From a candidate division FCPU426 bacterium (GTDB lineage: Bacteria > Oederibacteriota > Muellerivitia > Muellerivitales > Muellerivitaceae): a DNA stretch of 64,000 nt. A program made the position numbers and the translations under genes. Below, piece after piece: positions 49,513 to 51,994 of this stretch. The DNA lies in assembly GCA_963738405.1 (NCBI GenBank), contig CAVTWJ010000021.1, positions 32,001 to 96,000 of the forward strand. Reading direction: 5' to 3'. Under the pieces are notes generated by a model. It was not told where the DNA came from and did no database searches. It saw only the letters and a list, made by a program, of their open reading frames with translations. Position 1 is the first letter of the stretch. Each line of letters opens with the position of its first letter.

Positions 49513-50496
49513 ATGACGGAAATGCAGCAAATCACCCCTCGGGCGAAAAAAAATATATTCCTAATACGTTTTATTTTGGCTTTGATTTTACTTTGTTTCG
49601 CGTTCTTTTATCTTCAACCACATCCCGAAAAAAAAGAATTAGTTCTTATTTATTCAGCCGTATTAATCGCTTCCTTTTTTCCCTTCTTTTCCATGACCGA
49701 AGAACAATTTGAGAAGATCCGGTTTCAATATGTCGTGTTTTCCATGGACTTCGTGTTTCTTTTAAGTGGGCTTTTTCTCTTTGATCACTTTGAAACCAAC
49801 CTGCTCATCATGCTGTTTTTCACTTTTTTCATTTCCGCCTTGAGCCAGTCGCCCGGCCGTAGCTTTGTCGTATCGATTCCTGTCATCGCCCTTTACGTTT
49901 ACCTCAACTATATGAAAAGCGACGTATTTAACGTCATGGATCCGGTGCTCTTTCTTTCCTGCGCTTTACTTTTGGTTGTGGCCATCCATGCCGGTTATCT
50001 CGCCTACCGAACGGTTCAACAAGAGAAAGAAATAATCGAATTGGCTAAGAAGGCAAATCTCTTAGCCGAAAAGGTACGAGAAGGGGATCAGGCCGCCTTG
50101 GAATACGCCTCCACCCTCAAAAATGTTCTGGACGCCTTGCCCGTCGGGGCCATCGCCGTTTCAACCCAACAAACGATTCTTTTCGTTAACAGCCGTGTTG
50201 GAAAAATATTGGATTTGAATCCCCGGTCCCTCATTAACCTTTACCTGCCCGAAAAGACCACTCCCTTAGGCGAAATTGGCGTCCTGATGGCCAAAGCCAT
50301 CAAGGATCGGCATGAATTGAAAAGAGAATATCTGGATATCGAGTGGAAAGGCGTCCCCAAGAGGTTCCGATTGGACAGCGCCACCGGTGCCGCCGGACCT
50401 AACGGAAAGGTTTGGGGAACCTTGTTTGTGCTCCAGGAAACCCATCGAACACCGGAAGAAAATCCCTCCGTACCTGATCCTTTGCTGAAAGACTGA
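49513..50496 (+). CDS. Membrane protein with a coiled coil and C-terminal PAS-like domain
   Basis: 5-6 TMs, then VLDALPVGAIAV.....ILFVN ... G...G.LFVLQE. Confidence 0.7.
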   Translation: MTEMQQITPRAKKNIFLIRFILALILLCFAFFYLQPHPEKKELVLIYSAVLIASFFPFFSMTEEQFEKIRFQYVVFSMDFVFLLSGLFLFDHFETNLLIMLFFTFFISALSQSPGRSFVVSIPVIALYVYLNYMKSDVFNVMDPVLFLSCALLLVVAIHAGYLAYRTVQQEKEIIELAKKANLLAEKVREGDQAALEYASTLKNVLDALPVGAIAVSTQQTILFVNSRVGKILDLNPRSLINLYLPEKTTPLGEIGVLMAKAIKDRHELKREYLDIEWKGVPKRFRLDSATGAAGPNGKVWGTLFVLQETHRTPEENPSVPDPLLKD

Positions 50497-50730
50497 ATCT
50501 TTGATTTTCCTCTCGCCTTGTGGTCCCCCCATTCCATCCCCTTAATTTCCTTACATTCCGGGACTTAGAAAGGTCTTTCGAGCGCCTCTCGCTTGTGGTG
50601 CGGCGATTCCCTGCGACCGAAAGCGGCAAAAAAATAAAAAAACTGTTTCAGGAGTATTCTCGCTTTAGTCCTTCATCCTTTTCCATTCCCGACTCACAGA
50701 CTCACGCCAAAATAAAAAAATAATATATTT

Positions 50731-50771
50731 TGTTACGTAACACTCGCATTTTTTTTGTTTCGTGTTAAAAT
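50731..50771 (+). promoter_or_regulatory. Perfect palindrome TGTTACGTAACA plus extended -10 promoter (TGtTAAAAT)
   Basis: Palindrome at 50731-50742; TG at 50763-64 and TAAAAT at 50766-71. Confidence 0.55.
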
Positions 50772-50800
50772 GTCGTAAATTCGCTAAGAAGGAGGGACCC

Positions 50801-50851
50801 GTGGCGAAGAAAGTTGCTAAGAAGAAACCCGCGAAGAAAAAGAAGAAGTAA
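50801..50851 (+). CDS. 16-aa lysine-rich microprotein MAKKVAKKKPAKKKKK
   Basis: SD AAGGAGG, GTG start, TAA stop, own promoter and terminator. Confidence 0.7.
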   Translation: MAKKVAKKKPAKKKKK

Positions 50852-50875
50852 ATTCTTCATGACTGTTTTGTTTGC

Positions 50876-50907
50876 AAGCCCGTCCCCATTCGGGGACGGG
50901 CTTTTTT
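50876..50907 (+). terminator. Intrinsic terminator after the microprotein ORF
   Basis: AAGCCCGTCCCC-attc-GGGGACGGGC-T6. Confidence 0.9.
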
Positions 50908-51265
50908 CATTTTAAGCTCTAGTAAGAGCCCCAAAGTTTTTAGGCGACTCCTGAAATTCCCATTTTTAATCCCTCTAAAAAACATTTAGTGAAACCAAAT
51001 CATAAAAAGTATCAATGCGTCGAATGGAAGATCAAATTGGAAAAATTTATTGAAATTTAATTTATGGGCGTTTATCAACGTCTTTAGTTATTCTTGAATG
51101 CCTGGTTTATTGGGTTTTTAAACCGATTTTGGAACCGTGGACGATATCAAACATTTCCTTGGTAAATTCGCACCCTTCCCATTGAAAAATATTGATAGTC
51201 CTTGATTTATACGCTTTGAAAAAAAACATTACGTTCTTAAGCAACCGAATACAAAAATAAGAATA

Positions 51266-51994
51266 TCAACCAAACACTTTGTTCCAAAGAATCCGCAAGG
51301 GATCATAATACTTATCCACAACCCTCTCCTTAAGCGGAATAATGGCGTTGTCCGTAATGTGGATATCCTCGGGACAAACCTCAGTACAGCATTTGGTGAT
51401 ATTACATAGACCCAGACCATGTTGGTCCTTGAGAAGGCCGGTTCGGTCTAACTTATCGATAGGATGCATTTCGAGAGAGGCGATACGCGCGAAAAAGCGG
51501 GGACCCGCGAATTGACCCTGCATATTGTGTTCACGCAAAACATGACAAGTGTTTTGGCAGAGGAAGCATTCGATGCATTTTCGGAATTCCTGCACTCGAT
51601 CCACGTCCCTTTGCTCCCATTGCCACACAGCCCCATCCTTCGGGGTAAAGGGCGGAATCTTTTTATTAACTTCATAGTTATAGGAAACGTCAGTTGCCAG
51701 ATCTTTCATGAGCGGGAAGGCTTTCATCGGGGTGACGGTAATGGTTTGACCTTCCTCAAACTCGTTCAGGCGGGTCATGCACATCAGCCGAGGTTTTCCG
51801 TTCACTTCAGCCGAGCAGGAGCCGCATTTACCCGCCTTGCAATTCCAACGGCAGGCCAGGTCGGGGGTTTGAGTCGCTTGGAGGCGGTGGATGGCGTCCA
51901 ACACCACCATCCCCTCCTCCACCTCCACATCGTAATCTTTAAGCTCCCCGCCTTCGGAGTTACCCCGGTAAACCTTCATGTGAACCATCGACAT
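51266..51994 (-). CDS. sdhB: Succinate dehydrogenase/fumarate reductase Fe-S subunit
   Basis: NCKAGKCGSC, CIECFLCQNTC, CNITKCCTEVCP. Confidence 0.92.
   Translation of the reverse strand: MSMVHMKVYRGNSEGGELKDYDVEVEEGMVVLDAIHRLQATQTPDLACRWNCKAGKCGSCSAEVNGKPRLMCMTRLNEFEEGQTITVTPMKAFPLMKDLATDVSYNYEVNKKIPPFTPKDGAVWQWEQRDVDRVQEFRKCIECFLCQNTCHVLREHNMQGQFAGPRFFARIASLEMHPIDKLDRTGLLKDQHGLGLCNITKCCTEVCPEDIHITDNAIIPLKERVVDKYYDPLRILWNKVFG

Follow-up and report, generated by a model that had tools for sequence, protein, structure and literature searches.

The described systems closest to the mini-gene reported here are the C-terminal, histone H1-like tails of the Pseudomonas proteins AlgP and PhaF, 150-200-residue tandem repeats carried on a folded N-terminal domain, whose lysines, as set out in the passages of the two reports that deal with these KPAA tails, bind DNA, polyphosphate granules, and specific mRNAs (PMC9239181, PMC12818456). 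The AlgP paper, where it touches on detection, remarks that tryptic proteomics has difficulty detecting such sequences because their lysines are so close together (PMC9239181, PMC12818456), and mycobacterial Ku, in the part of the report concerned with its tails, carries PAKKA tails (PMC3553676). To the extent covered by these accounts, the AlgP and PhaF tails and the mini-gene peptide are alike in being Lys/Ala(/Pro)-rich, Arg-poor, disordered, and strongly cationic, with lysines every ~2-4 residues. The mini-gene product differs in standing alone: it has 16 residues (its relatives have 11-24), its gene carries a promoter and a terminator of its own, and a search with five relatives of 20-24 aa found no model-based homology (Pfam, NCBIfam).

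The C-terminal tail of histone H1 and the chlamydial proteins Hc1 and Hc2 have a similar Lys-rich composition as parts of larger DNA-binding proteins. The likeness of H1, Hc1/Hc2, and the Ku tails to the mini-gene peptide, which has a PAKK motif, lies in composition and in electrostatic, sequence-unspecific binding of nucleic acid, the latter being presumed for the peptide, which unlike these proteins has no globular domain. A physico-chemical analogy can be drawn with polyamines and synthetic oligolysines, which are likewise small, flexible, multivalent cations and which condense DNA and RNA through the release of counter-ions; the mini-gene peptide, unlike polyamines, is encoded by a gene and made by the ribosome, so that its level could be set by transcription and translation.

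Very small ribosomal proteins offer a further comparison. As far as the source descriptions go, bS22, bL37, bL38, bTHX, and eL41 share with the peptide their size class, basic character, and stand-alone or tiny genes that are routinely unannotated. Proteins of the bS22 type, however, have conserved, Arg-containing sequences within reach of a homology search, whereas the Lys/Ala peptides lack Arg, have no fixed length, are present in more than one copy, and gave no match. The bS22 homologue of the source genome was indeed found in this way, as a 34-aa Arg/Lys-rich ORF with a GGAGG Shine-Dalgarno (SD) sequence (contig C1:158900-159004; L183:201-305) that matches the PDB chains 8fmw_V (E = 7.8e-4) and 7jil_5 (E = 0.052) and no NCBIfam model.

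The mini-gene lies in the window, the whole 64,000-nt stretch of DNA analyzed, which belongs to a genome of 3.18 Mb (G000); two genomes of the same genus, G001 and G003, served for close comparison. Its features, in window coordinates except for the last, are as follows.

50728..50762, plus strand: conserved region upstream of the -10 element, near-identical in G000, G001, and G003; sequence further upstream is unalignable
50763..50771, plus strand: extended -10 promoter element TGtTAAAAT, identical in G000, G001, and G003
50778..50800, plus strand: short 5' leader, with an inferred transcription start
50789-50795, plus strand: Shine-Dalgarno sequence AAGGAGG, with a 5-nt spacer to the GTG start
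50801..50851, plus strand: ORF from GTG at 50801 to TAA at 50849-50851, encoding the 16-aa peptide MAKKVAKKKPAKKKKK
50876..50909, plus strand: intrinsic terminator, a 12-bp G+C-rich stem with a 4-nt loop, followed by a T run
~344857-344898 of contig C9 of G000 (L015:1501-1542), minus strand: 13-aa paralogue MAKKVVKKKTAKK, with SD, -10-like element, and terminator

The peptide MAKKVAKKKPAKKKKK contains 10 Lys, 3 Ala, 1 Val, and 1 Pro, its lysines being encoded by seven AAG and three AAA codons. The original prediction, made from the letters of the window, had described an extended -10 element, an SD, a GTG...TAA frame with mixed AAG and AAA codons, and a GC-rich terminator in a gap of ~770 bp. 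All of these are present at the coordinates given above: the terminator stem (50876-50903) has 12 pairs, nine of them G-C, precedes a T run, and forms a hairpin of ~-26 kcal/mol, and the gap measures 769 bp, from the end of a 327-aa ORF at 50496 to the end of sdhB at 51266. No -35 hexamer stands at 16-18 nt from TGtTAAAAT, which is why a sigma-70 scan passed over this promoter. Just 5' of it, at 50731-50742, is a 12-bp palindrome, TGTTACGTAACA, that could be an operator; it is perfect only in G000 and imperfect in G001 and G003. Within the genome, just 61 ORFs of 100 codons or more have the perfect heptamer AAGGAGG 4-9 nt before their start. In the predicted fold of the whole 133-nt transcript (z = -3.0), the SD is placed in a hairpin loop, and the mini-gene transcript shows one stable terminator hairpin with no alternative terminator/antiterminator fold. 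An Rfam search of the locus gave nothing at gathering score, the best candidate being PyrR at 30.5 bits versus 54 (E = 0.25).

On its 3' side, the mini-gene faces the convergent genes sdhB-sdhA. The 327-aa ORF on its 5' side (49513-50496, plus strand) has no Pfam match and is linked to the mini-gene only within the genus; by eye, its N-terminal half is hydrophobic and membrane-like and its C-terminal half soluble and possibly PAS-like.

A 261-nt query matched the mini-gene region in the two same-genus genomes at 87% and 85% identity. In the three-way alignment, the conserved island runs from ~35 nt 5' of the -10 element through to the terminator, taking in the -10, leader, SD, and ORF, with both flanks unalignable. 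The G001 orthologue encodes the identical 16-aa peptide with two synonymous changes, while that of G003 encodes 15 aa, with Val replaced by Ala, Pro by Thr, and one Lys codon lost in frame. In both genomes the terminator stem has changed on both arms with pairing kept, that is, by compensatory changes. A longer in-frame reading, 29 aa from a GTG at 50762, is interrupted by a stop codon in the orthologue of G001; hence the 16-aa frame is the conserved one. The original prediction had named lack of frame conservation in relatives as evidence against it and had proposed a pattern search of related genomes for the SD-ORF-terminator arrangement. In the relatives the frame is kept with synonymous changes, so that this refuting condition fails, and the retention of promoter, SD, ORF, and terminator there gives good support to the claim that a translated microprotein has a complete transcription unit here.

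The same pattern of change extends across the phylum. In 15 same-length pairs from 11 ortholog groups, there are 64 nucleotide differences, 5 at first, 6 at second, and 53 at third codon positions, corresponding to 48 synonymous and 9 non-synonymous codons. The longest A run of an ORF averages 6.06, versus 6.94 when the Lys codons are shuffled within each ORF, and none of 2000 shuffles gave so low a value. Since the ortholog pairs are related, these counts are not independent events, and both the count and the shuffle statistics overstate significance. Selection against poly(A) slippage would give such an avoidance of A runs in the codon choice. Length differences are all multiples of 3, and start and stop codons are kept across genera while nucleotide identity is lost. 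Within the 3.18-Mb genome, the only SD-preceded short ORFs with at least 50% Lys and no Arg are the mini-gene and its paralogue, and the reversed genome has none; with at least 50% Lys plus Arg, there are 22 in the genome versus 15 in its reverse. On this comparative evidence we regard the mini-gene as very probably real. At the level of sequence, these comparisons establish it as conserved, with purifying selection acting on the peptide, and as part of a widespread class.

The paralogue MAKKVVKKKTAKK carries AAGGAGG and the -10-like element TGtTAAGGT, and its G001 orthologue differs by seven synonymous and no non-synonymous changes, with a TTG start in place of ATG. A third copy, MATKKKPAKKKKK, is present in G001 (L029). 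Two or three copies of Lys/Ala ORFs occur in some genomes, and the relatives, 11-24 aa long, keep their composition while their sequence drifts; each has its own SD and a frame closed upstream by stops. In two Rokubacteria/Methylomirabilota records (L092, L137), tandem Lys/Ala micro-ORFs lie ~60 nt apart with separate SDs, and the pair in L092 adjoins the bL28 gene on the opposite strand.

Across 36 distinct ORFs of the phylum, the composition is 64.7% Lys, 22.9% Ala, 5.7% Val, and 4.3% Thr, with traces of Pro, Gly, Ile, and Cys, figures that are biased by the selection of ORFs with at least 42% Lys and Ala at position 2. Arg, Asp, Glu, and aromatic residues are absent from these ORFs, and the absence of Arg was not imposed by the selection; Lys and Arg are used almost equally in the long ORFs of the genome (0.53).

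Prevalence was estimated with sequence patterns, so that the figures depend on the pattern and are lower bounds. A strict pattern (GGAGG, 4-10 nt, RTGGC, 12-42 nt, four AAR codons, TAA) matched in 8 of 31 genomes of the family and 15 times in 14 of 99 genomes of the phylum, with one of the 15 matches out of frame and none for the reversed pattern. By manual reading of the matches listed for a looser pattern, 16 or more of the 31 family genomes have an in-frame Lys/Ala ORF, as do 13 or more of 23 families, although such looser patterns are noisy and their matches in part no commoner than in the reversed control. A still looser pattern gave no clear Lys/Ala ORF in four of five high-quality family genomes without an earlier match. 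This patchy presence in the family would mean either that the role is dispensable or that the patterns miss variants.

Beyond the phylum, a scan of one genome per prokaryotic species returned at least 118 loci; among the matches listed, 72 are in-frame tiny ORFs and 46 are out-of-frame chance matches, the latter mostly from low-G+C Clostridia. A Lys filter leaves at least 73 in-frame tiny ORFs from other phyla among the matches listed. The records belong to Acidobacteriota/Terriglobia, Binatia, Rokubacteria/Methylomirabilota, Nitrospiria, and Planctomycetes, and further Lys/Ala ORFs come from Verrucomicrobiota, Gemmatimonadales, Patescibacteria (CPR), and DPANN archaea. Being of low complexity, the Lys/Ala peptides of separate phyla may have arisen by convergence instead of common descent. 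Another family of micro-ORFs, MAKD(K/R)SPKKE(T/V)KKPKKKK, with an SPKK motif and a TATAAT promoter, was seen in Bryobacterales/Acidobacteria records (L066, L105, L133, L151) and adjoins thiC in two loci. On viral contigs (80 loci, L200-L279), 39 in-frame Lys-rich micro-ORFs were found, none of them pure Lys/Ala, and a phage origin is thus not indicated. All of these viral ORFs contain Cys, Gly, Glu, or Arg, and they include recurrent types such as MACKKKGGKKKK, MATRGGKKKKKTRGGKKKK, and MAKKQEKPVKKDEKKKK.

Two types of gene can be told apart within the phylum, a MAV/MAKK type with an extended -10 element, as in the G000 mini-gene, and a MATKKK type with a consensus TTGACA promoter and a 5'-terminal hairpin. 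TGn-TAnAAT elements like that of the mini-gene precede relatives in other genera and families, and stable terminators follow most of the 35 relatives examined. The MATKKK-type loci, from other families of the phylum (L177, L168, L173, L174, L178, L180, L181, L182), have a TTGAC(A/G) -35 and a TAnnnT-like -10 hexamer at 16-18 nt. Folded singly, since the hairpins are misaligned for one consensus fold, seven of the eight leaders form a 5'-terminal hairpin with stem sequences that differ between genomes, followed by an ACACAT-like sequence and a G-rich SD. In these predicted folds the hairpin looks like an mRNA-stabilizing 5' stem-loop.

The Binatia-like and Acidobacteriota micro-ORFs are preceded by highly conserved leaders of ~90-110 nt with predicted long-range helices, for which covariation is too slight to serve as proof (alignment A2: L040, L046, L049, L069, L076, L080, L149, L117, L124, L079; alignment A3: L037, L126, L056, L084, L062, L099, L153). 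No Rfam family matched these leaders. Over 20 relatives' loci, the only Rfam family above gathering score was Acido-Lenti-1 (RF01687), which in two loci of Acidobacteriaceae (L101:669-716, L134:572-619) lies ~200 nt 3' of the micro-ORF. Neighboring genes are kept only locally. The source genus and one further genus share sdhB, a different family has RNase J and an M16 peptidase, two additional families have ftsK, and two CPR loci have secA; a gene-neighborhood comparison of relatives found no conserved partner gene, and 1 of 103 flanking fragments from other phyla encodes a ribosomal protein.

The representatives of the class that were looked up are absent from the resources consulted. With E values up to 10 allowed, five relatives 20-24 aa in length matched no Pfam or NCBIfam family and a 24-aa relative no PDB chain, and an exact look-up among ~15 billion predicted proteins found none of the five. 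A full-text literature search found no description of genes for free Lys/Ala micro-peptides, and the sORFdb paper does not mention lysine. Within these literature and database searches, the earlier suggestion that the gene is possibly undescribed holds. Among the sequencing runs searched for the locus there was no RNA run with it; the only runs listed were six of DNA, with a 0.05 share of the sampled words.

How, then, might such a peptide act? We give about an even chance to the reading that it is a polyanion-binding counter-ion peptide. The mini-gene would be a stand-alone, monocistronic gene whose extended -10 promoter yields a transcript of ~130 nt, from which the perfect SD would direct efficient translation of the 16-residue peptide; the initiator Met would probably be removed, since residue 2 is Ala. 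The product is predicted to be an intrinsically disordered oligocation of ~+10 charge, built from almost nothing other than Lys and Ala. Made in large amounts, it may act by its charge on chromosomal DNA, on rRNA or mRNA, and possibly on polyphosphate, neutralizing and compacting these polymers in the manner of a free histone-H1 or AlgP-type Lys/Ala tail or of a gene-encoded polyamine.

Composition, variable length, paralogues, and patchy presence all favor an abundant oligocation acting by charge, and the lack of conservation of neighboring genes beyond local synteny favors a non-specific action of this kind. The idea of an H1-tail or protamine-like, polyanion-binding peptide, put forward in the original prediction, fits the Arg-free composition of Lys, Ala, Val, Thr, and Pro. 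We infer high expression of the class from the perfect heptamer SD, the strong terminators, and, in relatives, the TTGACA promoters and 5'-terminal hairpins. Counting against this reading, the genome has three HU/IHF genes, which leave no obvious gap among nucleoid proteins to fill; a role as stand-in for missing classical nucleoid proteins is ruled out by their presence.

An unrecognized small ribosomal protein, the other kind of function suggested in the original prediction, seated in a fixed rRNA pocket of every ribosome in the manner of bTHX, bS22, bL37, or eL41, would also be tiny and very basic and have strong expression signals, and in the portions of the structural literature that bear on it, lineage-specific micro ribosomal proteins are still being discovered by cryo-EM. 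Some neighborhoods could be read the same way, as the relatives of one family lie between RNase J and the M16 peptidase, one lies beside YicC, and one Rokubacteria locus adjoins bL28. The peptides, however, have no Arg, whereas the matched bS22 chains are rich in both Arg and Lys; they range from 11 to 24 aa with only composition conserved and occur as two or three paralogues and in tandem copies. Their presence in the family is patchy, just one of 103 flanking fragments encodes a ribosomal protein, the 24-aa relative matched no PDB chain at E up to 10, and a bS22 homologue is already present in the genome. The absence of Arg and of homology, the varying length, the multiple copies, and the patchy distribution make a fixed ribosomal protein less likely, and we consider this explanation unlikely.

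Alternatively, the translated ORF could be regulatory, its ten Lys codons reporting Lys-tRNA supply or the state of the ribosome, or the ~130-nt RNA could act by base-pairing, with the peptide secondary. The transcript is of sRNA size and ends in a strong terminator, lineage-specific conserved leaders with predicted structure precede the Binatia-like and Acidobacteriota relatives, and some relatives are followed, in the same orientation, by ftsK or secA. At the G000 locus, however, nothing downstream could be controlled, because the next gene, sdhB, is convergent and a strong terminator follows the stop. No alternative terminator/antiterminator fold is seen there and no Rfam family reaches gathering score. 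Moreover, third codon positions vary freely, so that the ORF part is not constrained as RNA, which contradicts a function of the RNA alone. Such a regulatory role is distinctly unlikely. A leader peptide or attenuator, tried as a candidate for the G000 locus, is excluded by the convergent sdhB and the single strong terminator after the stop.

Polycationic peptides bind anionic lipids and LPS, an affinity that would suit a precursor or exported peptide, whether a RiPP substrate, a membrane- or envelope-acting peptide, or an antimicrobial one. Against this, the mini-gene product lacks a signal peptide and any hydrophobic segment, neither a modifying enzyme nor an exporter is conserved alongside the gene, and the adjacent 327-aa membrane protein is linked to it only within the genus. 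We regard export or maturation of this kind as very unlikely.

That the ORF is a chance frame in a purine-rich, conserved non-coding element, as its shortness, its low complexity, and the lack of an RNA run with the locus among the runs searched might suggest, is highly improbable in view of the period-3 substitutions, the in-frame indels, the start and stop codons conserved across genera, the absence of reversed-pattern matches in 99 genomes, and the avoidance of A runs.

Returning to the counter-ion reading, the mini-gene apparently represents a free-standing form of the known H1-like Lys/Ala polycation theme, one that is widespread and unannotated. A broader proposal, which we hold tentatively and regard as rather doubtful, is that many bacterial phyla, especially uncultured lineages of soil and groundwater, have mini-genes dedicated to free peptides of 10-24 residues resembling oligolysine, and that these peptides, strongly expressed, are major cellular polycations that set the electrostatics of nucleoid, ribosomes, or polyphosphate. 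If this were true, these peptides would be ribosomally made "polyamines" or tail-only linker histones, and the class would have been overlooked because it is invisible to gene callers, protein databases, and tryptic proteomics.

The case also illustrates that comparative signals by themselves suffice for the confident recognition of ORFs much shorter than the usual length cut-offs, and a synthetic peptide of 16 residues would provide a simple, testable model of the class. If its levels match its expression signals, a whole class of abundant polycations is missing from annotation, databases, and proteomics in many phyla, which would bear on how nucleoids, ribosomes, and polyphosphate are neutralized and organized in organisms that still resist cultivation.
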